DNA of 64,000 nt from assembly GCA_036679605.1 (NCBI GenBank), contig JAZDCZ010000419.1, forward strand, positions 96,001-160,000, written 5' to 3'. Below are positions 17,761 to 35,157 of the stretch, piece after piece. Under the pieces are notes generated by a model. That model made no database searches. It was not told where the DNA came from and saw only the letters and a list, made by a program, of their open reading frames with translations. This DNA comes from Gemmatimonadota bacterium (GTDB lineage: Bacteria > Gemmatimonadota > Gemmatimonadetes > Gemmatimonadales > GWC2-71-9). The position numbers and the translations under genes were made by a program. Each line of letters begins with the position of its first letter. Position 1 is the stretch's first letter.

Positions 17761-18069
17761 ATGATCCCATTACTTGAACAGAAGCTGGCGGCCATCGCGC
17801 AGCTCTGCCGCCGCTACCACGTCGCGCGGCTCGACGTGTTCGGCTCGGCTGCGACCGGCGCCTTCGACCCCACGAGGAGCGATCTGGATTTCCTGGTGGA
17901 GTTCCAGCGCACGGCCGAGATGACGCTGGCAGATCAGTACTTCGGGCTCTGGGAGGAGATCCGTGAGCTGCTCGGCCGGGACGTCGACCTTCTCACGCCG
18001 CGCTCGCTTAGGAACCCGTACTTCATTGCAGCAGTCGAACGGAGCCGCCAGGAGCTATATGCGGCCTGA
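17761..18069 (+). CDS. Minimal nucleotidyltransferase (MNT) antitoxin
   Basis: LDVFGSAATG...SDLDFLVEF...RDVDLLT; 102 aa. Confidence 0.9.
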   Translation: MIPLLEQKLAAIAQLCRRYHVARLDVFGSAATGAFDPTRSDLDFLVEFQRTAEMTLADQYFGLWEEIRELLGRDVDLLTPRSLRNPYFIAAVERSRQELYAA

Positions 18070-18412
18070 GGCGCTAAAGCTCTTGGAGGACATCCGCGAC
18101 GCCGGCACATTCATCCTGGATACCGTGGCCCGGTTATCCCTGGCGGAGTACCTGGAAAACCGTCTGGTGCGTCAGGCGGTGGAGCGTAATCTCCAGATCA
18201 TCGGCGAAGCGATGAACCGGCTTCACCAAGTAGACTCTGAGGTCGCAGCTCGGGCCGGCGAAGTGGCCCGGATCGTGGCGTTTCGCAACATCCTGGTTCA
18301 CGGATACGACATGCTCGACCACGAGATCGTGTGGCAGGTCATCCGCGATAATCTGCCGACCCTGCTGGAGCGAACAAGCGGGCTGTTGTCGGAACCCGAT
18401 GATGTGTCCTGA
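18059..18412 (+). CDS. HEPN/DUF86 (HepT-like) RNase toxin
   Basis: AVERNLQIIGEA, FRNILVHGY (R-x4-H-x-Y); ATG at 18059 overlaps the MNT gene. Confidence 0.9.
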   Translation: MRPEALKLLEDIRDAGTFILDTVARLSLAEYLENRLVRQAVERNLQIIGEAMNRLHQVDSEVAARAGEVARIVAFRNILVHGYDMLDHEIVWQVIRDNLPTLLERTSGLLSEPDDVS

Positions 18413-18736
18413 ATCTGGCAGGCACCGGGTCCGGGGCTTCCAGACTTGGAATGAACGATAGCGTTTGTCGGGATTCATGGCATCAGCACTCCGTTTCCTG
18501 TCGCGATGTCATCCAATTGTTTGAATATGTTCCCCGCGAGCGATGATCGGTATACCCCAAAATAGTGCGATGAACTCGACGAAATAATTGCCCTCGCGCT
18601 GAAAGGCAGAATCGGCCAGTACTAGAGGTGTGCCCGACGAGTGTCAGGTCGTGTGGGAGGGAAGTGCGAGTCGTGAAGAAGCGGAAGTTCCTAACGGCAA
18701 TTTCAGATCGCAGACTTGTGGTTCTGGCTGCGATGT

Positions 18737-20008
18737 CTAGCCGGCGGATAATAGCGCGCGCAACTTCTCCGCAACCGCGGGAACGGGTGGCACGTCTCGG
18801 GACAAAGTCAGGAAGAGCTTGTCGTAGTCCAGTACAGGGTCGGTCACGGAAAGGCCCTCGAGGAGCGCCCGATCGGGACCGGCGTAGTCGTAGAGCCCGG
18901 CCTCTTCGGTCAGCCGCATGGCGTTCTCCAGGTGGTGCACCGCCTGGCGCGTCTTACGGAAGCGCGCGAACGCCATTCCCAGCGTAACTTCCAGATCGCG
19001 CCGTTCCGTCTCCGTCAGGTCCTCCTCCGATGCCGGGATCCGGAGGCGCAACCGCTCGAAGCCGACCCGGTTGCCCCTGAGGCCCGCAAGCTGAAGGAGT
19101 TGGGTGAGCGCCCGAACCCGTAGCCTTGGCGGCGGCTCCCCTTGCAACACGAAGTTGAACGCATCTTCGGCCGGCTGGTAGTGGCCGGCCTCGGACAGCG
19201 TGTACCCCAATATTTCGACTGACTGCTGACGGTCGAGTGACGTATGGGAGCACGCTACCGCCTCAAATGCCATAGCCACGGCGTCATCCACGCGGTTCGT
19301 AAATCGGCAGACCTCGGCTAACTGCTGGCACACAAGCGCCTCGGCCTTACGGTCACCGCCTTTCTGGGCGTCCTTTCTCAGCTTCTCGAGCGCGCGTTCC
19401 GACTGCTCGAAGTTGCCGCACGCAATCAACACACGTGCCCGGCCGGTCCGGCTGATTAGCCCCCAATGTTCATTCGAGAGGCCCGACGCCAGCTTTCCGG
19501 CTGCCTTGAATGCATCGTCGGCCTCATCGGTTTCGAGGCACGACAACAAGACCGCACCGCAGCGAAGGTGGGTTTGAATGGCTTCCTCGACATCGTCCAC
19601 GTTCGTTACGCGAAGGGCTGTACGCAGCACGTCCAAAATTTCCGCCACGGGCCGGTCTTGCTCCAGCCAATCCGCGTAGCTGACAAGCGGTTGCCACAGA
19701 GGGCGTAGGTGCTCCGCACAAGCACATTCGCCACAGGCCTCAACGATCCCCAGGAGCAATTCGACTTCCTCGGTGCCCTGGGGCAGATCCGTGAGGTAAT
19801 CCCGTGTCGCCTCGATCTGATAAAGGGTTCCCCTGCTTTGGGTATTGCCGCTCGCGAATTGATCGACTAGCCGGAGTGTCAGGAAGGCGCCCAAATTGAG
19901 CTGACCACTCTCCACGCCCGCACTGTCCCCCGCCCGCTCGATGAACGGCATATGCGAAATGGGCCAGGGCGGCCGGAAGTCGGAATCAGTGGTATCGATG
20001 ATTGTCAC
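18737..20008 (-). CDS. Hypothetical all-helical TPR-like protein
   Basis: 423-aa ORF with repeated helical pairs (EADDAFKAAGKLA, LGYTLSEAGHYQPAEDAF, LGMAFARFRKTRQAVHHLENA); start uncertain. Confidence 0.7.
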   Translation of the reverse strand: MTIIDTTDSDFRPPWPISHMPFIERAGDSAGVESGQLNLGAFLTLRLVDQFASGNTQSRGTLYQIEATRDYLTDLPQGTEEVELLLGIVEACGECACAEHLRPLWQPLVSYADWLEQDRPVAEILDVLRTALRVTNVDDVEEAIQTHLRCGAVLLSCLETDEADDAFKAAGKLASGLSNEHWGLISRTGRARVLIACGNFEQSERALEKLRKDAQKGGDRKAEALVCQQLAEVCRFTNRVDDAVAMAFEAVACSHTSLDRQQSVEILGYTLSEAGHYQPAEDAFNFVLQGEPPPRLRVRALTQLLQLAGLRGNRVGFERLRLRIPASEEDLTETERRDLEVTLGMAFARFRKTRQAVHHLENAMRLTEEAGLYDYAGPDRALLEGLSVTDPVLDYDKLFLTLSRDVPPVPAVAEKLRALLSAG

Positions 20009-20479
20009 ACCCCCATGCTAGAGTGCGAATGTGGTCGGCTGCCTAGAACTTGCAACGGATTGCGGGAGTCTGCTAGAGGGGGCAAGCGACGGATCCCAGG
20101 TGATTTCAGATTACGGATCGCCGATTGGCGATTGCGGAGCGGTCGTTCGGCAGCATCGGCGTAGACCGAATTGTCACACCCCCCACCTAGCTTCGACACG
20201 AGCAGAGAGTGCTCAGGTGAACACCACTCAGAATATGAGCGATAATTCAAATGGTCTATCGTACTCACGGTGCAGGTGACCGAGGAGAGATCAAATGCTC
20301 GAAGAACATCGGAGCAGTCCAAGAAATCGGGGGCAAATGTCCCAAGAACGACGTATGATGTCCCAAAAACGCCCTATCGTGGGGAAGGATCGGGGTGCAA
20401 GTTGTGGACTGATGCTTTGTCTACCGGCTCACGCCAAGTCAGATTCACCGTCAAGGAACAACTCTCACAGGAAAAGACA

Positions 20480-23128
20480 ATGGAAGGTGAACCGACGGGC
20501 TTCTGGGGAAAACTTGAACGGCACGATGGGGAAGTCACATGGCATCCTCTTGTAGATCACTGCGCGGACGTAGCGGCGTGCTTTGAGGCACTACTCAACC
20601 AGCCAGTGATTCGAAAACGGCTTGCAGGTCTCGGTGGCCTGGATGACCTGTCCAAGGGGCAGCGCGCTCGCTTGTGTTATCTGGCAGCGCTGCACGACCT
20701 GGGCAAGTACAATATCGGCTTTCAGAACAAGGCCTACTTGAAGAAGACACCTACTGCCGGTCATGTTGGAGAACCATCGGCCTTGTTCGGCTCCGGAGAC
20801 AAGATTGCCAGTCGCTTGGCAGATGCAATCCAGTTTTCCGAGCTATGCTCGTGGTGCACTGAGGCGGAGACCTTTGGAGAACTTCTGGTAGCCGCACTGG
20901 CCCATCATGGCAAACCTGTTGCGCTCGGCTCGCCGGTGCGCTCAGATATATGGCAAACAATGGGGGAACTCCAACCGTTCGAGGGTATCGCGGATCTGGC
21001 ATGCCAAGCGAGATGTTGGTTCCCAGACGCGTTCGGTGGATCCTTAGATCCATTGCCAGCGGATTCAGCTTTTCAACACGCTTTTAATGGATTCCTGACG
21101 TTGGCCGACTGGCTCGGATCCGACACCAAGATTTTTCCATTTTCAGAAGAGGCAGATCACGACCGATTCGCGTGGAGCCAAGAGCGAGCATGCCTGGCAT
21201 TATCCAGGATCGGACTCGATGCCACCGGTGCTCGTGCTTCCCTAGGTTCGGACCGGCCGGGCTTCGCTACAATCTCTGGCTTTGACCCGCGCGACGCACA
21301 GAGGTGTATTGCCAACCTGGATATCGACAAGGAAGGGAGCCTCACCATCCTCGAGGCAGAGACCGGTTCCGGCAAAACGGAGGCGGCTCTGGCCAGGTTC
21401 ATTACACTGTTCCACGCTGGCGTCGTGGACGGTCTCTATTTCGCCCTTCCGACACGAACCGCTGCAACCCAGATATTTGAGCGCGTTTACAAGGCGGTTG
21501 TGCGTGCCTTCCCCGACGAACAGATTCGGCCTCCAGTTATTCGGGCCGTTCCCGGCTACATAGCAGCGGATGACAAGAGAGCCGAACGGTTGCCGCACTT
21601 TGAGGTACTGTGGAACGATGATGAAGACGAGAGGTATCGGTACCGGGGATGGGCGGCCGAGGCACCCAAGCGATATCTAGCTGGCGCGGTAGTGGTTGGT
21701 ACTGTAGATCAGATTCTCCTGTCATCTTTGGCCGTATCACATGCACATCTTCGTGCATCGTCGCTCCTAAGGCAGCTGCTGGTTGTAGACGAGGTTCACG
21801 CATCCGACGCATACATGACGCGGATCTTGGAAGCTGTGCTGCAACATCATCTAGCTGCCGGCGGTCATGCGCTTCTCATGTCGGCGACGCTAGGCGCTGT
21901 AGCCCGATTACGATTGTCGGGTGAAGCTGCGTACGAACTACCGTCACTCGCTACAGCTTCTAGTACACTTTATCCACTTGTTACACACCGTCCTCTGAGC
22001 GAATCTATCCGGCAGATTCCCATTCAGGACAGCGGAACACCGAAGACGATACGTGTCGAGACGTCTCCGATTATGAGCTCACCGAGGAGTGTGGCCGAGA
22101 TGGCTCTCGATGCCGCACGCCAGGGCGCGCGCGTGATCGTCATTCGCAACACAGTTCGAGACTGTATCGCCACCCAGAAAGCGATTGAAGCAATTGGCCT
22201 GGGGTCCGACTCCCAGCTGCTATTCCGATGTGGGAAAATCTCGGCACCCCATCACGCCCGATTCGCCCGGAAAGACCGAATCGCACTGGATAAAGCGCTA
22301 AACGAACAGTTCCAGCCCAAAGCTCTGGACAAGCCCTGTGTTGTGATTGCCACCCAAACAGTTCAGCAAAGTCTGGATATCGACTCCGATTACATGATTA
22401 CAGACCTCTGTCCGATCGATGTTTGGCTACAGCGGTTGGGTCGGCTCCACCGGCATTCTGAACGTCAATGCACTCAAGGGTTCCAGACAGCTGCGGTCAC
22501 GGTTCTGGTACCCAAAGAGCGTGACCTGACACCGCTAATCAAACAGCACGGTTCGGCGTCTGGACCACACGGTCTCGGCACAGTGTACGACGATCTCCGC
22601 GTCCTTGAAGCTAGTTGGCGAATCCTTGAGTATTCGCAAGAGGTGGAGCTTCCCACAATGAACCGGCAACTGGTCGAACAGGCAACCCATCCAGAGGCTT
22701 TGGCCACGATTGTGGCTGAGCTGGGAGATGAGTGGCACAAACATTATCAGCACCGGTCCGGTGTGACTCACGCCGAGCAGGGTCTTGCAAGGCTGAACCT
22801 AGTAAACCGAGAGGTTCCTTTCACTCACAAGGACTGCCTTTTCCCGTCTGGTGACCTGTCGCGCGCTATCAAGACCCGCTTGGGAGTTGACGATCGATTG
22901 GTACGCTTCAGCCATGAGCTGCCTGGGCCTTTTGGAAACGGAATTCGGGAGCTATCCCTGCCGGGACACATGGTGTATCAGGCAGAGCCGAACGAGGAGC
23001 CGAGGAAGATCGAGTCCGAATACAACGAAATCATGTTCACGTTCGGTCGCGTCCGATATCGTTACGACCACCTGGGTCTTCGGAAACTCGATAAACACAG
23101 GTCTACTGAGGAACGCGCAGATGACTGA
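20480..23128 (+). CDS. cas3: CRISPR-associated helicase/nuclease Cas3
   Basis: HD domain (DHCADV, LHDLGK, ADWLGS), Walker A AETGSGKT, DEVH, MSAT, QRLGRLHRH; ATG at 20480. Confidence 0.95.
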   Translation: MEGEPTGFWGKLERHDGEVTWHPLVDHCADVAACFEALLNQPVIRKRLAGLGGLDDLSKGQRARLCYLAALHDLGKYNIGFQNKAYLKKTPTAGHVGEPSALFGSGDKIASRLADAIQFSELCSWCTEAETFGELLVAALAHHGKPVALGSPVRSDIWQTMGELQPFEGIADLACQARCWFPDAFGGSLDPLPADSAFQHAFNGFLTLADWLGSDTKIFPFSEEADHDRFAWSQERACLALSRIGLDATGARASLGSDRPGFATISGFDPRDAQRCIANLDIDKEGSLTILEAETGSGKTEAALARFITLFHAGVVDGLYFALPTRTAATQIFERVYKAVVRAFPDEQIRPPVIRAVPGYIAADDKRAERLPHFEVLWNDDEDERYRYRGWAAEAPKRYLAGAVVVGTVDQILLSSLAVSHAHLRASSLLRQLLVVDEVHASDAYMTRILEAVLQHHLAAGGHALLMSATLGAVARLRLSGEAAYELPSLATASSTLYPLVTHRPLSESIRQIPIQDSGTPKTIRVETSPIMSSPRSVAEMALDAARQGARVIVIRNTVRDCIATQKAIEAIGLGSDSQLLFRCGKISAPHHARFARKDRIALDKALNEQFQPKALDKPCVVIATQTVQQSLDIDSDYMITDLCPIDVWLQRLGRLHRHSERQCTQGFQTAAVTVLVPKERDLTPLIKQHGSASGPHGLGTVYDDLRVLEASWRILEYSQEVELPTMNRQLVEQATHPEALATIVAELGDEWHKHYQHRSGVTHAEQGLARLNLVNREVPFTHKDCLFPSGDLSRAIKTRLGVDDRLVRFSHELPGPFGNGIRELSLPGHMVYQAEPNEEPRKIESEYNEIMFTFGRVRYRYDHLGLRKLDKHRSTEERADD

Positions 23129-24671
23129 AATGCTTCACGATCTATTAAGCGAACCGTCGATAGGTGTGGGGTACAGCGGCGGACGCGAGGCACAGCTAAC
23201 CCTTCCACAAGTGCTGTCCGGTATGGCTAACGATGATGTGCAGTCGTTTACCTCACTGCAGGTCCATCAGACGCATGCGTGGCACGCATTCCTCTGCCAG
23301 TTGGCTGCAATCGTGCTACATCAATCGGGTACAGGAAAGCCGCCGTTGGACACTGACTGGTGGACAGAGCAACTGATTGCGGCAGCAAACGGAGAACGAT
23401 CTGCGTGGTGTTTGGTGGTAAAAGATCTATCAAAGCCTGCGTTCCTACAGCCGCCTGTCCCGGAGGATACGCTGGACAGATTCAACCAGGTCGGTCGTTT
23501 CCCAGATTTGCTCGATGTCCTGATCACCACCAAGAACCACGACGTCAAGGCGCGACGTATCCGCAATGCTAGGCCCGAACACTGGTTGTACGCATTAGTG
23601 TCCCTCCAGACTATGCAAGGCGTCCTCGGGCGGAACAACTACGGCATCGCCCGAATGAATCAAGGATTCGGTAGTCGGCCGTGCGTATCATTCGCCGCTA
23701 GTTTGTCGCGGAGCCACAGGTTTCTACGTGATGTCGCCGTACTTCTCGAGATTCGAGAACAATTGGTTCGCGAGCACGGGTACAAGGTGTCCGGAGGTCT
23801 GGCATTGGTTTGGCTCCACGAATGGGATGGTCTCGATTCGTTGGACATCGGTCGACTCGATCCCTTCTTCATCGAGGTCTGCCGACGCATTCGACTGACG
23901 AACGAGCGTCGATTCACGGCCTTTAAGGCACCAAGCAAGGTACCACGGATCGCCGCTAAGGAACTGAAGGGTGATACCGGTGACCCGTGGACGCCGATCA
24001 GCAAGGATAAGGGAGCAGCACTGACGGTTAGCGGCACCGGCTTTTCCTACAAGCTCACACACCAACTAATTGTTGGCTCAGATTACCGGATGGGACCTAC
24101 CGCCGACCTTCGGCCGGAAGATGGCAATGCCCCGATCTTCCTGGCGTGCACCCTGGTACGTGGCCGGGGAGAAACGGATGGATGGCACGAGCGTATCATT
24201 CCTATACCGCCCAAGGTTCGGCCGCTGCTAGGAGTGGGAAGTGAGCCGAGGAATCGGTTGGCTGACCTGGCGCGGTGGCGGGTGGAACAGACGGCCGCAG
24301 CCGAGCGATATGTGCTCAAGCCTGCACTGTGTGTGCTACTTCAGGGTGGTCCGGATTCGATCGATTTCCGAGACGAACGCCCTCGGGCTTGGCTGGACGG
24401 TTTCGATCGCGCAGTTGATGAGCGGTTCTTCGACTGCCTATGGGAAGATGCCGACCTGGACACGCAGGAAGCGCACCGACGCTGGGAACGAGTGATTCTG
24501 GATCTGGCCGAGCGCCAACTGAAGGGCGCTATGCAATCAGTACCGTTGCCGTCAGTGAGACGGTACCGAGCCTTGAGCGCCGCGGAGCGTATGTTCCGCG
24601 GCGCACGCAGTAAGCGGTTTCCGGAATGGCGACCCTATCAACTCGAAGACAGAAGGTCGGAACATGACTGA
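23121..24671 (+). CDS. cas8e: Type I-E Cascade large subunit Cas8e/Cse1 (divergent)
   Basis: Position after cas3; HDLLSEPSI, PAFLQPP, EVCRRIRL, DPWTP motifs; about 516 aa from ATG at 23121. Confidence 0.8.
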   Translation: MTEMLHDLLSEPSIGVGYSGGREAQLTLPQVLSGMANDDVQSFTSLQVHQTHAWHAFLCQLAAIVLHQSGTGKPPLDTDWWTEQLIAAANGERSAWCLVVKDLSKPAFLQPPVPEDTLDRFNQVGRFPDLLDVLITTKNHDVKARRIRNARPEHWLYALVSLQTMQGVLGRNNYGIARMNQGFGSRPCVSFAASLSRSHRFLRDVAVLLEIREQLVREHGYKVSGGLALVWLHEWDGLDSLDIGRLDPFFIEVCRRIRLTNERRFTAFKAPSKVPRIAAKELKGDTGDPWTPISKDKGAALTVSGTGFSYKLTHQLIVGSDYRMGPTADLRPEDGNAPIFLACTLVRGRGETDGWHERIIPIPPKVRPLLGVGSEPRNRLADLARWRVEQTAAAERYVLKPALCVLLQGGPDSIDFRDERPRAWLDGFDRAVDERFFDCLWEDADLDTQEAHRRWERVILDLAERQLKGAMQSVPLPSVRRYRALSAAERMFRGARSKRFPEWRPYQLEDRRSEHD

Positions 24672-25197
24672 TCAAGTGATGAGCGTCTCCCAGGCGACAG
24701 ACGAACCGCCACACTCGAAAACGTCGATCATGAGCATCGTAAATCGAATCGCCGGTGCATTTGGGCGGGACATAGGTAGTGGCGATATAGCGATGTTACG
24801 ACGAATGGACCTCGATGACCTCGGGGCGTCGGCATTCTGGCGGATCATTTCCACGTATGTCCCTGCCGACACGTTACCAAATCATGATCCTTTGCTCGCC
24901 GAAACTGAACGGAAGTGGGCCATCGTTCTGAACGCACTGGCGATTTTGGCTGGCTTGCACCAACACAATGTGTCTCTGGGCGCTGCGTTGGCCCACGCCG
25001 GGTTTTCAGAGCTGAGATTTGTAAGGTTACTGCGGGCACGTGATGCTACGCTTGGAAGTCACGTTCGGTCTGCTGCATCGTACCTCGCATCCAAAGGACA
25101 GAGCGCCGATTGTGCAGATCTGGCACTTCTCGTGTTCAGCGACGCCGAGCCTGTAAGGCGTAAGCTCGCGCGCGATTACTACTATAACGGTGACTGA
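24664..25197 (+). CDS. cse2: Type I-E Cascade small subunit Cas11/Cse2
   Basis: GDIAMLRR, SELRFVRLLRA, RKLARDYY; position in operon. Confidence 0.85.
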   Translation: MTDQVMSVSQATDEPPHSKTSIMSIVNRIAGAFGRDIGSGDIAMLRRMDLDDLGASAFWRIISTYVPADTLPNHDPLLAETERKWAIVLNALAILAGLHQHNVSLGAALAHAGFSELRFVRLLRARDATLGSHVRSAASYLASKGQSADCADLALLVFSDAEPVRRKLARDYYYNGD

Positions 25198-25229
25198 TGA
25201 TCCAGAACCTCCAGTGGAGAACGTGAACC

Positions 25230-26438
25230 ATGGGTGCAAGATTCTTGCAGTTTCATTTCCTTACTTCCTACCCGTCAGCTCTCTTGAACCGGGACGACGC
25301 TGGCTTTGCCAAACGCATACCGTTCGGAGGTGTTACACGGACGCGCATTTCGTCCCAGTGTTTGAAGCGTCACTGGAGAACCTTCGACGGCGAGCACTCG
25401 CTCAGTAAGCTTGAGGCTCCCCAGACCATCAGATCGCGCCTTACATTCGACCGGTTCATTCTTGGTCCTCTCAAGGACGACGGCGTTGATGGCGAACTGG
25501 CTCGAGCGGTGACCGAGGCGCTGATGGTGGAAGTGCTAGGACAAAGCGCGAAGGCCAAGAAAGCCAAGAAGAAAAAGGAAGAGGAAGACAGCAGCAACGA
25601 TAGTGACCTACAAACCGGCCAGATCACCGTGCTTGGCCGACCTGAGATCGACTACCTCCTCAGCGAAGCTGGAAGAATATGCAAGGATCTATCCGACCCG
25701 AAGAAGGCAGAGAAAGCCGTGAAGGGAACCTTCGATCGAGACGGCTTGAAGAACTTGGCCAGGCTTAGTGCCGGGCTCGGAGTCGCACTATTCGGGCGGA
25801 TGGTGACCAGCGACATACTGGCGCGGGGTGATGCTGCAATGCATGTGGCCCATGCTTTCACTGTCCATGCCGAATCAGCGGAGAGCGATTACTTCTCCGC
25901 CGTGGACGACCTGCTCCAAGAAGGGGATGACGAAAAACTGGGCAGTGGCCACATCGGATCCACCGAACTGACCAGCGGACTCTACTATGGCTATGTGGTG
26001 ATCGATGTGCCGCTCCTGATATCCAACCTCGAGGGTTGCGAGCAGGAGGACTGGGAGAGCGCGGATCGTGATCTAGCTGCGCAGGTAGTGGAGCGTGTCC
26101 CCTACCTTATCGCGACTGTCTCTCCGGGCGCCAAGCTGGGATCGACCGCGCCGTACGCCTACGCACATTTCGTGTTGGGAGAGGCCGGATCCGCCCAACC
26201 GAGGACTCTAGCCAACGCCTTCCTCGAACCAGTTCGCGAACGGCCGAACCTGCTAGCCAACACTTACCTGTCACTGACGAACCACCTCAGCAGCCTCGAT
26301 ACCATGTACCGGAATGGCGTGTCACGGATGCTCTCGGCACAAAACACAGACGAAGATCTCTGCGCTGCGGTAGGCGTCGAACAGGCCGTGTCTCTGCCGG
26401 ATTTGGCACGATGGGCGGCCGACATGGTTCGGGAGTGA
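25230..26438 (+). CDS. cas7: Type I-E Cascade backbone Cas7/Cse4
   Basis: LLNRDDAGFAKRIPFGGVTRTRISSQCLKRHWR, ALFGRM, DYFSAVDD. Confidence 0.95.
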   Translation: MGARFLQFHFLTSYPSALLNRDDAGFAKRIPFGGVTRTRISSQCLKRHWRTFDGEHSLSKLEAPQTIRSRLTFDRFILGPLKDDGVDGELARAVTEALMVEVLGQSAKAKKAKKKKEEEDSSNDSDLQTGQITVLGRPEIDYLLSEAGRICKDLSDPKKAEKAVKGTFDRDGLKNLARLSAGLGVALFGRMVTSDILARGDAAMHVAHAFTVHAESAESDYFSAVDDLLQEGDDEKLGSGHIGSTELTSGLYYGYVVIDVPLLISNLEGCEQEDWESADRDLAAQVVERVPYLIATVSPGAKLGSTAPYAYAHFVLGEAGSAQPRTLANAFLEPVRERPNLLANTYLSLTNHLSSLDTMYRNGVSRMLSAQNTDEDLCAAVGVEQAVSLPDLARWAADMVRE

Positions 26439-26441
26439 CTC

Positions 26442-27194
26442 ATGTTGGATATCCTGGTTCTAAGATTTGATGCTCCGATCTTCAGTTTGGGCGGTCCTAT
26501 AGTTGATAGGAACAACATCACTCGGGAGTTCCCATCTGCATCTGCCATGACCGGCTTGATCGGAAACGCTCTTGGGTATCACCATCGTGACGCAGATTCA
26601 CTTCAGGATCTACAACGAAGACTGCGTTACGCAGCTCGTTCCGACTGCCCTGGCCAGCTAATAGTGGACTACCAAATAGTAGATTTGGGACAATCCTTGA
26701 TGTGCCAAGGAGGATGGACCACATATCGCGTGTTGGAGAAGCGCTCAGGCGGACGTGCCAAGACAGACACGCATCCCAGATATCGGTGGTACCGCGCCGA
26801 TAGCGTTATGACAGTTGCGCTGACGTTGAGAGACACTGGCGCTTCACCAACTACCGACGAAGTTGAACAGGCACTGAAACAACCGGCTCGGCCCTTGTTC
26901 ATCGGCCGAAAGTGCTGCATACCGAGTGGGCCATTGCTTTTTGGTCGCATTCACGCGAAGTCTCTGCTAGCCGCATTACAAGGGACCCCCCTTGCTCACC
27001 GTCCAGGTTACACCAGACAAGCTACAGTCCAGGCATGGTGGCCAGCCGACAAGGATGACCCAATCCAAGATCACCGCATGATGGTAGTCACCGATGAAAG
27101 AGACTGGAAGAATCAGATTCATGCTGGCCAGCGCAACATTCGACATGGCAAGATCCGGGTTTCAGTGGGGGACACTAACGATGACGCAGAATAA
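26442..27194 (+). CDS. cas5: Type I-E Cas5e
   Basis: LVLRFDAPIFSLG, FPSASAMTGLIGNALG, ALKQPARPLFIGRKCCIPS. Confidence 0.92.
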   Translation: MLDILVLRFDAPIFSLGGPIVDRNNITREFPSASAMTGLIGNALGYHHRDADSLQDLQRRLRYAARSDCPGQLIVDYQIVDLGQSLMCQGGWTTYRVLEKRSGGRAKTDTHPRYRWYRADSVMTVALTLRDTGASPTTDEVEQALKQPARPLFIGRKCCIPSGPLLFGRIHAKSLLAALQGTPLAHRPGYTRQATVQAWWPADKDDPIQDHRMMVVTDERDWKNQIHAGQRNIRHGKIRVSVGDTNDDAE

Positions 27195-27927
27195 GCAGCT
27201 GTACATGGTACGCCTCGGCCTAGACATGCGCAGCTTGGTAAAGACAGGCCGGCAAATGCGATTGCCGCTTCACGGTGTCGATGACGGTTACCTCGTCCAT
27301 TGTCAACTAGGTCAGTTGTTCGGCAATGATGCTCCGAAGCCCTTCTCCCTGGGACATGTCCGAAGACGCTGGCTAGACGTAACTGCTTACACAAGCCGTG
27401 ATGTCAAGGACTTAAGCGTACACGCTGACAGCTTTGCAGATCCATACATACACTCGTCTTGTGACTGGGACGTGTTCGCACAAAAGCGGATGCCGATGTC
27501 TTGGAACGAGGGATCGCAGTATCGGTTCGAGGTAAGGATCTGCCCCGTTGTCCGAGCGAATTCTGATAGCCCATGCTACAAACGAGGTTCAGAAATAGAT
27601 GCTTACTTAGCTCAATGTAACACCACGGCCGAGGCATGTCCGGACTCCCGATCTGCAGTGTATATCCACTGGTTGGAGGAACAGTTCCAACGCAGAGAGG
27701 GTGCGCAAATCGAGGCATGTCGGATGACAGGTTTTCGACTGATTCGAATCGCTCGGCGCGCGCAACGGAACGGTCGGCGGGCCTCCGTTCGACAACGTCC
27801 CGACGTAAGGGTGGAGGGCATGCTTACTGTTACCGACGGTGGCAAATTCACCGAACTCTTACGGCGTGGTGTAGGTCGACATCGAGCGTTCGGATTTGGC
27901 ATGCTGCTCCTCATACCCATTGGCTAA
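27181..27927 (+). CDS. cas6e: Type I-E Cas6e/Cse3 crRNA endoribonuclease
   Basis: C-terminal G-rich loop GVGRHRAFGFGMLLL, EGMLTVTD. Confidence 0.9.
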   Translation: MTQNKQLYMVRLGLDMRSLVKTGRQMRLPLHGVDDGYLVHCQLGQLFGNDAPKPFSLGHVRRRWLDVTAYTSRDVKDLSVHADSFADPYIHSSCDWDVFAQKRMPMSWNEGSQYRFEVRICPVVRANSDSPCYKRGSEIDAYLAQCNTTAEACPDSRSAVYIHWLEEQFQRREGAQIEACRMTGFRLIRIARRAQRNGRRASVRQRPDVRVEGMLTVTDGGKFTELLRRGVGRHRAFGFGMLLLIPIG

Positions 27928-28815
27928 TTGGTACTCAAGGGCCGTCTAGGACTTGAGACTGCACGGATCCCGCACGGGGACCGGCACGGTCTGTTGTGGC
28001 TGGGACGAGGCAAACTCTTTGTTGAGGATGGGACCCTGCGATTTACGACGACAGGGGCTGGAGATCTTGATGCTGGTGACTATGCGATTCCGTACCAGAT
28101 GCTTTCATGCATTCTCATTGGGCCGGGTACAACAGTTAGTCACGACGCATTGCGGATTCTCGCTCGCCATAGTACGGGCTTGATCGTTGTCGGGCAGGAC
28201 GGCGTCCGATTTTATGCCAGCATGCCGTCTGGCCCGGACCACTCGGCTCTCGCACGCAAGCAGGTAGCTGCTTGGGCAAGCGCAGATGGTACCCGCCTCG
28301 ATGTCGCTCGACGCATGTATGCTTGGCGGTTGGGAGAGGTCCTCCAGCATTCGGAGATTAGCGTGTTGCGCGGGATCGAAGGAGCGAGAATGAAGGAAAC
28401 CTATCGCCGCTTGGCTGAGGAGTATGAAGTAGATTGGTCTGGGAGGCGCTACGACCGCAGTAACCCAATGTCGACTGACCTTCCAAACCAAGCCATCAAT
28501 CATGCAGCGACTGCAGTCCAGGCTGCTGCGATGGTCGCCGTAGCGACCGTTGGCGCGGTGCCGCAATTGGGGTTTATCCACGAGGATTCCGGTATCGCGT
28601 TCTGTCTCGACATAGCTGACCTGCATCGGGACTCCGTCACGTTGCCGGTGGCTTTTGGCGGGGTGCGTCACTGTCTACGCCGGCCGACAGATTCTGTAGA
28701 GGGAGTAGTGAGACGGCTTGCCGGCAAGACTTTCCGAAAGGTACAACTAATTCCCAAGATGATCGATCAGATCAAAGCATTGTTTGAGACCAATGACGGT
28801 ACTGGTAACAGTTGA
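27928..28815 (+). CDS. cas1: Type I-E Cas1
   Basis: GPGTTVSHDA, LRGIEGARMK, LGFIHE, DIADL. Confidence 0.95.
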   Translation: MVLKGRLGLETARIPHGDRHGLLWLGRGKLFVEDGTLRFTTTGAGDLDAGDYAIPYQMLSCILIGPGTTVSHDALRILARHSTGLIVVGQDGVRFYASMPSGPDHSALARKQVAAWASADGTRLDVARRMYAWRLGEVLQHSEISVLRGIEGARMKETYRRLAEEYEVDWSGRRYDRSNPMSTDLPNQAINHAATAVQAAAMVAVATVGAVPQLGFIHEDSGIAFCLDIADLHRDSVTLPVAFGGVRHCLRRPTDSVEGVVRRLAGKTFRKVQLIPKMIDQIKALFETNDGTGNS

Positions 28816-29116
28816 CGTCGCCGCGCGCTTCCGCGGATTCCTGGCGTCGTGCATGTTAGAGATCGCACCAGGCGTTTATACGTCGCCACGAATGACGAAA
28901 GCTGTACGCGAGCGCGTCTGGTCTGTGCTCGAGGACTGGTTCAGCGAACTCGGCGGGGGCGGGATCGTCATGACCTGGCGAGAACCGGCGCTCGCAGGCG
29001 GTCAGGGAATTGCCACGCTCGGTGTGCCGCCCCGTGAACTGCACAAGGCAGGCGGAATCTTCTTGGCCCGGCGCAATACTGACGGCGAGACGGAGGAGAC
29101 GGTGGAGGTAGATTAA
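28793..29116 (+). CDS. cas2: Type I-E Cas2, no DnaQ fusion
   Basis: RFRGFLASCMLEIAPGVY...VRERVW. Confidence 0.92.
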   Translation: MTVLVTVDVAARFRGFLASCMLEIAPGVYTSPRMTKAVRERVWSVLEDWFSELGGGGIVMTWREPALAGGQGIATLGVPPRELHKAGGIFLARRNTDGETEETVEVD

Positions 29117-29195
29117 ATACGCTCTTTGACAATTGATGTATACTGGATGAATGAGTTCGGCTCGGCACTCCAACCCTCTTGCAAAGTGCAAGAGG
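29117..29195 (+). promoter_or_regulatory. CRISPR leader (short, 79 nt)
   Basis: Relatively AT-rich segment between the cas2 stop and the first repeat. Confidence 0.7.
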
Positions 29196-32100
29196 GTTTC
29201 CCCCGCGCACGCGGGGATAGACCCCGGCCTCGGTCGCGTAGCGTTCCCGTTCCCGGGTTTCCCCCGCGCACGCGGGGATAGACCCAGCCGCTACCTGCAC
29301 CACCCCAGCATCCTGCCGTTTCCCCCGCGCACGCGGGGATAGACCGTAGAAGCCGGGATCGACCAGGCACAGGTCACCGTTTCCCCCGCGCACGCGGGGA
29401 TAGACCCGGTATCGAGCTTGATCAACCTCTGCTGCCGGAGTTTCCCCCGCGCACGCGGGGATAGACCCAGGTCGATCTGTTTGGGTCTGGCTCAAGTCAA
29501 GTTTCCCCCGCGCACGCGGGGATAGACCGCGCTATGCTTTAGCTGTCAAAGATATCCAGCGGTTTCCCCCGCGCACGCGGGGATAGACCCCTGACTGGCG
29601 GTGTCGCGATCGTGCCCGCATTGTTTCCCCCGCGCACGCGGGGATAGACCCAAGAAGGATCCCGAGAGCCCCGGCAGTTTCTGGTTTCCCCCGCGCACGC
29701 GGGGATAGACCCGAAAGAGAATACTGTAGCTCTGGAACGCAAAAGTTTCCCCCGCGCACGCGGGGATAGACCCCGCGAGTCCTCGCAGTAGCAGGGGAAT
29801 GCCGCGTTTCCCCCGCGCACGCGGGGATAGACCGTGGAGGGTGACTACGAAATAGTTGATGACGTGGTTTCCCCCGCGCACGCGGGGATAGACCCTGCCG
29901 GCATGCCGCGACGCACTCAAAATATTAGTTTCCCCCGCGCACGCGGGGATAGACCCTCCTCCCACCCCATCCAAGGATATTCATGGCCGTTTCCCCCGCG
30001 CACGCGGGGATAGACCCTACTTGCAATATCGCGGCTTGAAGGACCCCGAGTTTCCCCCGCGCACGCGGGGATAGACCCCAATTCCTTGCCCTACGCTCAG
30101 GTGGTCGAAGGTTTCCCCCGCGCACGCGGGGATAGACCGCGGTTCGGGATCACCGAAGGGACCGCACACCAGTTTCCCCCGCGCACGCGGGGATAGACCG
30201 CAAGCGACCACTCCGTAGCCTTGCCCGCGCTCGTTTCCCCCGCGCACGCGGGGATAGACCCCGCACCGCGAAATTGAAAGAGGGGCGCGCGAAGTTTCCC
30301 CCGCGCACGCGGGGATAGACCTTTTTACGGATGGGTATGAATATGCCCTACAGGGTTTCCCCCGCGCACGCGGGGATAGACCCACCGAACGAACTCACGC
30401 CGCCCTACGAAACATGTTTCCCCCGCGCACGCGGGGATAGACCCGCCGTCAATGCGCGCGTCGTCCATCATCTTTCGTTTCCCCCGCGCACGCGGGGATA
30501 GACCCTAAGAGCATGAGTCTCGGCCCTTGGGTCGTGGGTTTCCCCCGCGCACGCGGGGATAGACCTCCATTAGTGTGTTCGGCGAAGGTCCGGGCCAGTT
30601 TCCCCCGCGCACGCGGGGATAGACCCTCGCGGCGGCTATCGCGGTCACGGAGCTGGCCGTTTCCCCCGCGCACGCGGGGATAGACCTTTGAATAGTCCAG
30701 TCACTGCGGCCATCACAGCGTTTCCCCCGCGCACGCGGGGATAGACCTCATCCGATTGAGCTAGCAGGTAGGCTCGGCGTGTTTCCCCCGCGCACGCGGG
30801 GATAGACCTTTCCGTCCAGGTCCACTCACAAGCGAGCTAGAGTTTCCCCCGCGCACGCGGGGATAGACCTCATGGAACGCACCCTAGCGCGCCCCCGCCC
30901 CAGTTTCCCCCGCGCACGCGGGGATAGACCCTAGGCACCTTGCGAGTCCTTCCTAGATGCCGGGTTTCCCCCGCGCACGCGGGGATAGACCTTACAAATA
31001 CCACAACTGCGATGATTACCGCCCGTTTCCCCCGCGCACGCGGGGATAGACCCATCTGAGAGGGTTCGCGTCTAAGTTCCTGGCCGTTTCCCCCGCGCAC
31101 GCGGGGATAGACCCTGCGGCACTAGTAGCGGGAGACATTCCCGATCGTTTCCCCCGCGCACGCGGGGATAGACCACCTGATTCGCGGCCCTATTGTGCCC
31201 AACTTGGGTTTCCCCCGCGCACGCGGGGATAGACCCCCAAAACGGCGCCATTACTAACGGTTTCAGTTGTTTCCCCCGCGCACGCGGGGATAGACCTTTC
31301 GCTCATTGAACATCTTCTCCAGATCGTCCGTTTCCCCCGCGCACGCGGGGATAGACCCCGTTTACACCAAGGGCAGCGGAGGCCGGTCACGTTTCCCCCG
31401 CGCACGCGGGGATAGACCGTACGGTATCGAGATCGAGGTCGTACTTGATGAGTTTCCCCCGCGCACGCGGGGATAGACCCCATGCTGTCGTCGGTGATGG
31501 CTGTCACGATTAGTTTCCCCCGCGCACGCGGGGATAGACCGTAAATAGTGGGGCGACAGCGTTTGTAACGGAGGTTTCCCCCGCGCACGCGGGGATAGAC
31601 CGTTGGCAAAGATCGTCCATTGGTGCGAGCAGAAGTTTCCCCCGCGCACGCGGGGATAGACCCACATAGACCTACCGGTAATCGATGGGGACGGGGTTTC
31701 CCCCGCGCACGCGGGGATAGACCCTAGCGGCACAAAGTCGGAGGTAGATATGTGGAGTTTCCCCCGCGCACGCGGGGATAGACCCATTACATTGCATCTA
31801 CCGTTGAAATTGAACTGGTTTCCCCCGCGCACGCGGGGATAGACCCGTCACTGTCGTCAAGGAATTGCTCTAACTGTCGTTTCCCCCGCGCACGCGGGGA
31901 TAGACCTCTCCCCACCGAAGGAAACGCCGAGTCTCCACGGTTTCCCCCGCGCACGCGGGGATAGACCCGGTTCTGTGTCGTCAATGTACACCTGCGCTGT
32001 GTTTCCCCCGCGCACGCGGGGATAGACCGGCCTTGGGTCGTACGAGCGATCCCCTGCCCTGGTTTCCCCCGCGCACGCGGGGATAGACCCTGACTGTCGC

Positions 32101-33919
32101 ATTAGCGCTCGAGGCCTCAGAGGTTTCCCCCGCGCACGCGGGGATAGACCCTTCTTTCACGTCTTCGAGCACGAGCACCTCCGGTTTCCCCCGCGCACGC
32201 GGGGATAGACCCCATTGACGTACATCCAGCTCCCACCATCCTACGTTTCCCCCGCGCACGCGGGGATAGACCCGTTATGCAAGATGGCCCTGTCTCGATC
32301 TTTAAGTTTCCCCCGCGCACGCGGGGATAGACCCCAGAACGGTGAGAGAGCCAGATGACGTATACCGTTTCCCCCGCGCACGCGGGGATAGACCCAGCAC
32401 GCCAGACTGACTCCTCGACCCCTTGACGTTTCCCCCGCGCACGCGGGGATAGACCGTGGTATTAGTGGCGGAATTGAGGCGGGACGTGGTTTCCCCCGCG
32501 CACGCGGGGATAGACCTACGGCGAAGCGGATGCGGTTGACTGGGCCAGAGTTTCCCCCGCGCACGCGGGGATAGACCCTATCATGCCGCAATCCTAAACG
32601 GTGAGGAGATGTTTCCCCCGCGCACGCGGGGATAGACCGTAGCCGGAGTCGACCAAGCGCCGAAATGATCGGTTTCCCCCGCGCACGCGGGGATAGACCC
32701 TAGGTGTGGCCGGTGGGCCGCATACCGGGACGGTTTCCCCCGCGCACGCGGGGATAGACCCTCGCCTCCCTGGTGCATCGACCCGCAGACGTAGTTTCCC
32801 CCGCGCACGCGGGGATAGACCCGTCCCTGTCTCTCGATGTACTCCCCGATCCTCGTTTCCCCCGCGCACGCGGGGATAGACCCGCGACGCGTGGGAGCGC
32901 GCCCAGGAGAAAGCGGTTTCCCCCGCGCACGCGGGGATAGACCCACATCCAAGGTGCTCAAGCTCAATAATGCTGCGTTTCCCCCGCGCACGCGGGGATA
33001 GACCGTGGAGCGGAAGAAGGCCAACGAACACACGCCCGTTTCCCCCGCGCACGCGGGGATAGACCCTAATAGCATCTTACGCCACGTCTCCAACCATAGT
33101 TTCCCCCGCGCACGCGGGGATAGACCGTCTAAATAGTTGACCGCTCGATCACGACGTAAGTTTCCCCCGCGCACGCGGGGATAGACCCAGAACATCTTGG
33201 TCGCCTTCGGACAGATCATGGTTTCCCCCGCGCACGCGGGGATAGACCCGTGGTTGGCAATGGACTCTTACTCGTTGGGGTGTTTCCCCCGCGCACGCGG
33301 GGATAGACCGTGTTTCGGTTACGCGAGCTACGGATCTAATCCGTTTCCCCCGCGCACGCGGGGATAGACCCCAGAGAGAGCTGGACGTGGCGAACGCCTT
33401 CACGTTTCCCCCGCGCACGCGGGGATAGACCGTATACGAACCAACTTGGAAAGTGGCTGCCCGGGTTTCCCCCGCGCACGCGGGGATAGACCGTCCAAAC
33501 CTCGGCCCTGGACTGGGTGATCGTGGTTTCCCCCGCGCACGCGGGGATAGACCGTTTGGTCGACGCGATTCAAACAACGGCGTTAGGTTTCCCCCGCGCA
33601 CGCGGGGATAGACCCCAGACACTTTCACCCTCATACCCAGAATCCCAGTTTCCCCCGCGCACGCGGGGATAGACCCTCAGCGGCGGTTATTCCACCCACG
33701 GCATACGTGTTTCCCCCGCGCACGCGGGGATAGACCCCGTGATAGTGTGATGGCCGAGCGGGACTCTGTGTTTCCCCCGCGCACGCGGGGATAGACCCCA
33801 AGCAGAGGCAACGGCATGGTCTGACAATCCGTTTCCCCCGCGCACGCGGGGATAGACCTTGTATTGCCGCCCGGGGTGTCCCCAAATTGAGGTTTCCCCC
33901 GCGCACGCGGGGATAGACC
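29196..33919 (+). CRISPR. Type I-E CRISPR array, 78 copies of GTTTCCCCCGCGCACGCGGGGATAGACC
   Basis: 28-nt repeat at a 61-nt period (one 60-nt unit at 30538-30597), counted by hand; CCCCGC/GCGGGG stem; adjacent to the I-E cas operon. Confidence 0.98.
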
Positions 33920-33952
33920 CTTCTCAGTCTGTAGGTCCTTGAGGGGCGTCCC

Positions 33953-34049
33953 GTTTCCCGCTCGCACGCGGGCGTGGATTGAAACACGGTGATTGGCCGC
34001 TTTGCCAGCTCCGCAGGTCGCCCGCTCGCACGCGGGCGTGGATTGAAAC
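33953..34049 (+). CRISPR. Two type I-C-like repeats appended to the array trailer (the first is an I-E/I-C chimera)
   Basis: GTTTCCCGCTCGCACGCGGGCGTGGATTGAAAC (33953-33985), a 31-nt spacer, then GTCGCCCGCTCGCACGCGGGCGTGGATTGAAAC (34017-34049). Confidence 0.88.
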
Positions 34050-34289
34050 GGTATGCGTAGTCTCCTAGTTCAATTGTCGATGGCCAGATCTGTGTAGTTT
34101 TCGATGGCCGGTGACAGGGATAGAACCATTTGACGGTGGAGCTTGCACAATGGGTAGACGTTCGCCCCGCGCCCGCTGGAGCGGTGGTGAGCTCGTTTCT
34201 TGCCGTGAACGTATATCGTTCATGCCGTGAAACATCTCGCCACGTCGGCTGCGTCAAGCCGTGTTGGTCACCGATGCCAACCCTCCGCA

Positions 34290-34691
34290 TCAGACCACGT
34301 CAGCTACACCCAACCCCGCGATCCGCTCGGCGAGCCTACGGTCCGCCGTCACCAAACGGCAACCCAACGTGAGCGCCAGAGCCACGTAGCTCGCATCGTA
34401 AACGGTGATCTCATGCGTAAGGGCGAGGTCAAGCGCGGAGCGGTATTCGCGGTCGCCCAAAGCGAAGGTCTCCACCTCGAGTCCCGCGAACCGCTCGTAA
34501 CCCGAGCGCGCAGCTTGTGAATCCAGCGAAGCACCGCACGCCAGGACATTCGCGACCTCGTAGTGCAAGAGTTCCGGCGCCGCCGCCGCCACCCGCCCGC
34601 TCACATGATCGCCCAGAAGATCCTGGTAAGATGTGGGAAGCGGTTCCCGCAGGAGCCACCCCAAGACTACCGAGGCGTCCAGCACCCTCAC
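34290..34691 (-). CDS. vapC: PIN-domain VapC toxin
   Basis: VLDASVVLGW, EVANVL, TVYDASYVALA, LVTADRRL; GTGA overlap with the antitoxin. Confidence 0.9.
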   Translation of the reverse strand: MRVLDASVVLGWLLREPLPTSYQDLLGDHVSGRVAAAAPELLHYEVANVLACGASLDSQAARSGYERFAGLEVETFALGDREYRSALDLALTHEITVYDASYVALALTLGCRLVTADRRLAERIAGLGVADVV

Positions 34692-34960
34692 CGTCGATTC
34701 CGGTCGTCTCGAACGAGCCCGACGGGATCCGCCTTCGCGATCCGGGAAGCGTATTCCGCCCGCCACTCGGCCACGCGCGCCGCCGCCGCATCGAGCCGCT
34801 GCACCCTGGACGAGATACCCGTCTCGTACCGCTCGGCCGGCACCAGCACGACCAGCGGCCGGTTGCGCCGAGTGATGAGAACCGGCTCGCCACCATCAGC
34901 AACATCATCCAACACCCGCCCAAGCTGCCTCCGCAAAGCCAATGCACTGACACTCTTCAT
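34688..34960 (-). CDS. Phd/YefM-family antitoxin
   Basis: MKSVSALALRRQLGRVLDDV...EPVLITRRNRPLVVLVP. Confidence 0.88.
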   Translation of the reverse strand: MKSVSALALRRQLGRVLDDVADGGEPVLITRRNRPLVVLVPAERYETGISSRVQRLDAAAARVAEWRAEYASRIAKADPVGLVRDDRNRR

Positions 34961-34978
34961 AATATCTCCATATATAAT

Positions 34979-34999
34979 ATATAATATTAGCTATTATAT
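34979..34999. promoter_or_regulatory. AT-rich inverted repeat, likely TA operator/promoter
   Basis: ATATAATA-TTAGC-TATTATAT just upstream of the antitoxin RBS, in an otherwise GC-rich region. Confidence 0.55.
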
Positions 35000-35157
35000 G
35001 ATATACCAGCGCGCTGTGGCAAACGGCTGCGTGGTGATCTTGGAAGCGCGCTGCGGCGCCCAGGGCTTCGACTCTCGGAGAACCTAGCCTTTCAACGACC
35101 GCATCGGGTCGGCGGACCCGATCCCGTAAAGGCACGCAATTGCACAGATCGGTTCCC

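Follow-up and report, generated by a model that had tools for sequence, protein, structure and literature searches.

The CRISPR array of a Gemmatimonadota bacterium (assembly GCA_036679605.1, contig JAZDCZ010000419.1) is of type I-E for 78 repeats and then ends in two repeats of another kind, the first a chimera with an I-E 5' part and an I-C-class 3' part and the second a full 33-nucleotide (nt) I-C-class repeat (hereafter the 33-mer). These last two repeats are very probably a non-functional relic of an I-C or I-C-like array that was overwritten in place by the I-E system through short-homology recombination. The stretch analysed, here called the window, comprises 64,000 nt from positions 96,001 to 160,000 of the contig; coordinates count from its first letter, and features lie on the forward strand unless stated otherwise. 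The genome containing the window is labelled G000, and other G, L and X labels denote the genomes, the loci or contigs and the sequencing runs that were compared in the analysis.

The joint between two repeat classes

The type I-E array (29196..33952) has 78 repeats and 78 spacers with a period of 61 nt. Its repeats share an invariant 28-nt core (29196 to 33919), spaced 61 nt apart in 76 intervals and 60 nt in one; with their hairpin fold, they agree with the 28–29-nt hairpin repeat and 61-nt period characteristic of type I-E. Upstream lies a complete I-E operon of cas3, cse1, cse2, cas7, cas5, cas6e, cas1e and cas2e (20270..29116), in which every gene scores above its NCBIfam cut-off except for the full-length Cas3 model (338/569 bits); both Cas3 domain models pass. 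The probable leader (29117..29195) is placed by its location between cas2 and the first repeat. Exactly 61 nt after repeat 78, in register with the array, begins the chimeric repeat (33953..33985), followed by a 31-nt spacer that is presumably left from the older array (spacer 79, 33986..34016) and by the 33-mer (34017..34049). Repeat mapping confirms this arrangement of the array end, which an earlier note on this DNA had described. As a separate observation, position 29 of the I-E repeat varies (approximately 60% C, then G, T and A) across 29196-33920, and the first spacer base is not fixed, unlike in many I-E arrays.

The joint can be observed directly. In the chimera, the first 7 nt equal the I-E repeat and the last 29 nt equal the 33-mer, leaving a 3-nt overlap at positions 5–7, the same shared bases in which the crossover had been proposed to lie, and the fold predicted for the chimera has a hairpin register different from that of either parent. 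The crossover falls outside the 10-nt core common to both parent repeats. The last 26 nt of the 33-mer occur just twice in the 6.7-Mb assembly, even when 4 mismatches are allowed. A reciprocal chimera (I-C start, I-E end) was not found in G000, where the search at up to 4 mismatches gave only the 78 I-E matches; a simple single-crossover insertion is therefore unsupported. Recombination within a repeat could be dispensed with altogether if the chimera were an I-C repeat with two point mutations, as it differs from the 33-mer at positions 3–4 only, or if the I-E repeat had evolved in place from the I-C repeat, the two parents being identical at 19/28 positions without gaps. We regard both as very improbable: the two changed bases are I-E bases, the unit stands in exact 61-nt register, there are no intermediates among the 78 identical repeats, similar I-E repeats accompany related Cas1e in other families, and the recurrence census described below contains cases with longer I-E prefixes.

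Unitigs from run X1 cover 33895-33986, 33957-34046 and 34020-35000 with 0 differing letters at depths of 18.9, 18.4 and 18.1; X1 is possibly the source sample, and hence not independent biology. The first of them, 92 nt long, covers spacer 78 and the entire chimera at the depth of the flank, so that the spanning-read check proposed in the earlier note succeeded for this junction. The step from the chimera to the 33-mer relies on a 30-nt overlap between the first two unitigs, mostly repeat, and that link is not proved by the unitigs alone. An assembly chimera joining arrays of different organisms might be suspected, given that other arrays bearing the same 33-mer are present in X1 and that the G000 bin exceeds its relatives in size (6.7 Mb compared with 3.7 Mb for the congener; 96.5% complete, 6.3% contaminated). 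Such an artefact is nevertheless extremely improbable, considering the 92-nt unitig at flank depth, the fact that 31-mers cannot be joined through a 3-nt overlap, the connection of the I-C repeat to both slot flanks in runs X3 and X4, and the presence of hybrids in chromosome-level records (L059, L096), an isolate (L048) and the genome G257. Size and contamination do suggest that the G000 bin may include foreign contigs.

Several lines of evidence place the 33-mer in the I-C class, as had been claimed from its letters. It folds into a 7-bp stem with an 11-nt free 3' tail, the shape that marks I-C repeats. Allowing up to 3 mismatches, it occurs in 2/400 genomes of the phylum, among them G393, in which four copies with 1 mismatch stand behind a Cas5d-family gene, a Csd2-like cas7, cas3, cas4 and cas1c. 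The G393 cas1c and Cas5d Pfam models score above their cut-offs and the Cas5c and Csd2 NCBIfam models below, and from its sequence this operon, the nearest known one, is classed as an I-C variant. Spacers in G393 are only 29–32 nt long, and the relic spacer of the window has 31 nt. In G007, a sister 33-mer (29/33 identical by hand count) stands behind canonical cas5c, cas8c, cas7c and cas1c. Exact copies of the 33-mer form arrays in metagenome contigs, one with 95 exact repeats (L030) and another with 21, and no I-C gene has been shown beside the exact-copy arrays L030-L032. Against Rfam, the 33-mer reaches 28.6 bits for CRISPR-DR9, below the gathering score of 45. On its sequence features, we thus class the 33-mer as an I-C-class repeat. 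Two related observations stand apart. The G393 operon (L026/L163, G393:C9:39100-51300) has an unusual gene order: cas5 is followed by a 749-amino-acid (aa) gene without family match, cas3 is preceded by two unassigned genes and cas4 by a HEPN gene. In addition, two metagenome contigs (L028:202-234, L029) contain a lone exact 33-mer with no surrounding array, possibly a solitary repeat unit.

The I-C genes that would belong to such a repeat are missing. The earlier note had remarked on their absence from the window, and this extends to the whole of G000: the profiles TIGR02589, TIGR01876 and PF09709 gave 0 matches (with weak controls), and tblastn with I-C proteins from the two family relatives G393 and G007 returned just one 26% Cas1 match, elsewhere in the genome. 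The cas5c, cas8c and cas7c set of a functional I-C system is thus lacking from a 96.5% complete assembly, in which no further CRISPR array was found either. The I-E module, for its part, is the newcomer, because close Cas1e relatives are rare in the phylum (11/400 genomes, 1/166 within the family) and at best 62% identical. Two other Cas1 loci were noticed in G000. One is a solo Cas1 of 501 aa (L213:1418-8303, G000:C365) without an array and with a 1073-aa frame nearby that weakly matches family B DNA polymerase, an arrangement that looks casposon-like from its sequence; the other is a reverse transcriptase-Cas1 fusion (L214:717-3128, G000:C130) on a 5.4-kb contig in which no array was found.

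Occupants of the slot in related genomes

Related genomes bear out the proposed in-place change of subtype, with type I-G in the slot of G001, an I-C-like operon next to the same toxin-antitoxin pair in G393, and the matched pair G257/G411. The members of this pair are congeners with single-contig genomes, which are 95.9% identical over 10.9 kb upstream and 98.9% identical over 7.8 kb downstream of the slot. Between these flanks, G411 has mntA, hepT and a full I-E operon with its array, whereas in G257 there is a full I-G operon, hepT is truncated after 7 codons and just the 3' half of the I-E terminal repeat is left; no I-G repeat was found in the G411 region. The comparison shows that a system was replaced in place, here in the reverse direction, I-G over I-E, and that the downstream joint fell inside a repeat. 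Of the 12 I-G arrays whose 3' end is visible, only the one in G257 directly abuts half an I-E repeat.

G001, the one congener of G000, has the formate dehydrogenase operon in common with the window to the left of the slot and, to its right, the genes from 35154 onwards. Between the shared flanks, the formate dehydrogenase operon is followed by a type I-G Csb1/Cas7 gene, and on the other side stands a 36-nt I-G-type repeat whose tail matches most Csb1-adjacent arrays in the phylum. Approximately 1 kb further is a relic in which a degenerate I-E repeat is followed by 26 nt and then by the tail of an I-G repeat, and this degenerate repeat shares a 13-nt core with the repeat of the window. Neither relic motif was found outside the array in G000. 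At the place equivalent to the TPR-like gene of the window (18737..20008, reverse strand; weak TPR matches below the cut-off), G001 also has a TPR-like gene, and a decayed Phd/PIN piece lies at the place syntenic with the PIN toxin and Phd antitoxin pair that is the right neighbour of the slot in the window (34290..34960, reverse strand). The left neighbour in the window is an MntA/HepT-like toxin-antitoxin pair (17761..18412), and in G393 an MntA/HepT pair 82% identical to it stands directly upstream of the I-C-like operon.

Two sequencing runs of another study, X3 and X4, contain contigs approximately 92% identical to the right flank that start at base 8 of the terminal repeat, and in them the last 26 nt of the I-C repeat are joined straight to the left flank and to the right flank. 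The loose end of the X4 contig matches window positions 18585-18614 at 25/30 letters (hand count), and the comparison of loose ends in both runs rests on 28–30 letters. The contigs run from the right flank into sequence like 18585-18614, and the entire cas-bearing middle is therefore missing there. In the window, the same region contains two degenerate I-E-like units 60 nt apart (18527..18614), which have no stable fold and are the only match in the assembly to a 16-nt I-E-start pattern; they are possibly a still older layer of the slot. Another set of genomes, all of one genus, with different subtypes in the same slot has I-G in G261 (L209) and I-E in G093 and G148 (L172, L175), with downstream flanks 72–83% identical and no relic found.

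Recurrence, route and function

Hybrid array ends recur widely. An I-E hairpin with an I-C-type tail 46–74 nt behind it, a pattern that detects one direction only, was sought in 185,579 species genomes and gave 88 matches, most of the records being metagenome bins. The first 80 were sorted automatically into 52 terminal, 10 internal, 14 non-CRISPR and 4 non-I-E matches, and the signature of a foreign repeat was present in 48/52 terminal compared with 1/10 internal matches. Fifty of these 80 were retained (the 48 plus L057 and L064, by hand), together with 6 of the last 8. Dropped were 11 internal spacer matches or continuations resembling repetitive extragenic palindromes, 4 arrays with the tail motif at the end of their own repeat, 13 non-CRISPR hairpins, three terminal matches without the foreign-repeat signature (L038, L041, L070) and one borderline case (L095). 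In total, 56 of the 88 matches are I-E arrays that close with a chimeric or foreign repeat. From the record titles, we take them to span about a dozen phyla, and some of the foreign repeats, 36–37 nt long, presumably belong to other types. One of the cases (L034, G413) is from an unpublished genome. As controls, 7 unselected I-E arrays of the phylum with a visible trailer had a foreign tail in 0 cases; such array ends are uncommon.

Across the first 50 cases kept, the final unit carries an I-E prefix of 5–23 nt in 22, and the relic consists of a single foreign unit in 27 and of seven or more in 3. Where both parents were at hand, their overlap is clean and 1–6 nt long in 7/15 cases. I-C cas7 is present in 7 of 50 census genomes and lacking from 43 (a set that included L095 in place of L109), and no cas family was found near 11 hybrids (75 selected open frames scanned of 125 listed). 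Two loci, L068 and the isolate L048, are nested, with the same I-C repeat flanking an I-E remnant on both sides. The window MntA, HepT and PIN queries match only 2/80 census loci and G411, and by this test toxin-antitoxin genes are thus not a general homology anchor. Three further observations concern mixed units and hybrids elsewhere. The chromosome-level records L059 and L096 have short I-E arrays running directly into 7 foreign 37-nt repeats, with transposase genes close and no cas nearby. The reverse pattern gave 2 matches in viral contigs, both lone mixed units. The viral contigs L121, L122 and L126 contain repeat-like unit pairs of two subtypes at spacer distance, possibly mixed decoy units.

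From these observations we infer the order of events and the enzyme. A type I-C or I-C-like system would formerly have occupied the chromosomal slot, which a horizontally acquired I-E system, comprising its cas genes, its leader and one or more repeat-spacer units, then took. The downstream joint would have arisen when an I-E and an I-C repeat recombined through short homology, and the I-C cas genes, the leader and most of the old array would thereby have been removed. The incoming DNA probably carried a whole I-E repeat and spacer 78, because later repeats copied from a chimeric seed would have been chimeric as well. One route, to which we give close to an even chance, is that the new system landed upstream of the old one and that a deletion between the two co-oriented arrays followed. 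Another, with a lesser though considerable chance, is a one-step transfer, anchored at one end by homology in the flank and at the other by a few G+C-rich bases common to the repeats. Both fit equally and leave the same scar. Hence, of the earlier proposal that an I-E module was grafted onto an older I-C array, the in-place subtype change stands, but the single step does not follow, given that stacking and later deletion would look the same.

Short-homology recombination is favoured over a site-specific enzyme because the position of the joint wanders along the repeat and few bases are shared. A resident Cas1-Cas2 integrase could instead have joined the end of the incoming DNA to a repeat border, with recombination on the other side finishing the swap, and the foreign repeat is indeed whole from its first base in 18/28 non-chimeric census cases (hand-read). 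However, the joint lies inside the repeat, at positions 5–23, in the window and in 22 census cases, and the gaps before whole foreign repeats, 7 below 30 nt and 3 of at least 38 nt, have no clear fixed-end skew; we consider the integrase improbable.

Several points weigh against overwriting in place by short-homology recombination. The overlap in the window is just 3 nt despite the 10-nt core that was available, and in the census the overlaps are unclean in 8/15 cases. The perfect terminal 33-mer fits a recent event but also selection. No genome was found in which both flanks of this slot enclose an intact I-C system; in a search of the family for the right flank, 4/260 genomes matched and the slot was intact in none. 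The two sides of the G001 slot are on two separate contigs, and G393 shares just the neighbouring toxin-antitoxin pair, itself mobile. Among 7 loci with DNA upstream of I-E cas3, 0 had resident repeats or I-C genes in it, and this lack of a tandem intermediate weakens the route by stacking and deletion. Lastly, some census cases share flanks (L035, L114), so that not all are independent, and the census genomes are mostly incomplete assemblies.

The foreign units might also have been kept for a function, either with one transcript feeding two Cascade types in trans or with the I-C unit acting as a regulatory or decoy CRISPR RNA, as the earlier note had suggested. The terminal 33-mer is intact and identical to the repeat of long arrays elsewhere, and in X3/X4 no change in its last 26 nt is among the differences listed. 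Two Cascade types sharing a transcript are nevertheless unsupported, as no I-C cas was found in G000, and in the census joints and relic lengths vary between genomes and most genomes lack I-C cas7. In G000, the 78 spacers, spacer 79 and the post-terminal sequence have only chance-level self-matches. The first 21 nt of spacer 79 matched 0 viral contigs, and the whole array matched 1 weak phage record, from which no protospacer adjacent motif (PAM) was derived. Comparison of the window and census spacers with 11 cas-bearing loci, a search of low power for anti-cas spacers, gave matches of 13–21 nt only. A regulatory or decoy CRISPR RNA is likewise unsupported, there being no target and no promoter-like site. 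The best match of spacer 79 to the cas promoter region at 19900-20500 is 10/16, too little for a CreA/CreR-like pairing, and nothing beyond 10/16 was found in the 5' regions of the cas or toxin-antitoxin genes; spacer 78, the post-terminal sequence and the 18551-18586 spacer gave no convincing CreR-like match. The terminal units are two in-register units at an array end at which no promoter- or terminator-like site was found, which differs from a solitary repeat unit or Racr. Homing by a CRISPR-associated transposon finds no trace in spacers 77–79, which are without self-match in G000, and no Tn7-like transposition genes are among the 28 window proteins scanned, no genome-wide search having been made. 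With no cognate genes, no targets and no promoter-like site, a function of the relic units is unlikely, indeed quite improbable, and the unit in the window is most likely dead.

Known precedents and meaning

Subtype replacement at one locus is already known. In Mycobacterium canettii and the M. tuberculosis complex, a single slot is occupied by III-A, I-C, I-Cvar or I-E, and a III-A locus replaced an I-C locus by laboratory DNA transfer (PMC8262963, PMC3884719). As in the window, subtypes alternate there at one locus, whereas the downstream joint of the window lies within the old array. For Escherichia and Salmonella, recombination at the CRISPR itself has been proposed, with arrays that outlast cas genes and act as integration hotspots (PMC2886076). 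That proposal is a hypothesis of exchange within I-E without a physical scar, while the window has a readable joint at which the repeats of two subtypes are fused. Homology-facilitated illegitimate recombination forms joints at identities of 3–10 nt and is favoured in G+C-rich segments (PMC8504540); as covered in that source, it is known from transformation in Streptococcus pneumoniae and Acinetobacter, not from CRISPR repeats, and its likeness to the window is by analogy.

Multiple arrays are treated in PMC12814883, in whose available passages two repeat types in one array are not described. Systems that occur together and have compatible spacers or share arrays have also been reported (PMC8482600), as have cas loci that are hybrid and fused (PMC1282333). 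Such systems keep both gene sets, with separate arrays or one repeat, whereas the window has one array with two repeat types and lacks the second gene set. An odd repeat-spacer unit near a cas operon or array end is also a feature of the cas-regulating CreA/CreR mini-arrays, Racr solitary units and the atypical terminal repeats of CRISPR-associated transposons. The window differs from all three in that no target or promoter-like site was found and that its odd repeat is the normal repeat of another subtype. No description of chimeric cross-subtype terminal repeats was found in the full-text literature, mostly outside subscription journals and with supplements excluded.

The value of the finding lies in the recurrence together with the matched pair G257/G411. 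How different subtypes come to share one chromosomal site in close relatives has so far been a matter of reasoning from gene trees, with no physical trace, and chimeric terminal repeats give both the joint to base level and the direction of the swap. The hotspot proposal (PMC2886076) thereby becomes countable across genomes and testable in the laboratory. In practical terms, foreign terminal repeats can mislead subtype calls and assign the oldest spacers the wrong PAM.

A broader proposal, which we advance tentatively and as a whole hold to be rather doubtful, is that old arrays serve as landing and exchange sites for the succession of subtypes. Repeats would recombine over a few shared bases, possibly with help from Cas1-Cas2, and the likeness of repeats would determine which subtype can overwrite which. 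Array trailers would then be layered records giving the order of past immune systems, and candidate examples of such layers are found in G001 (I-G over I-E over I-G), in L048 and L068 (I-C over or around I-E) and in G257 (I-G over I-E).
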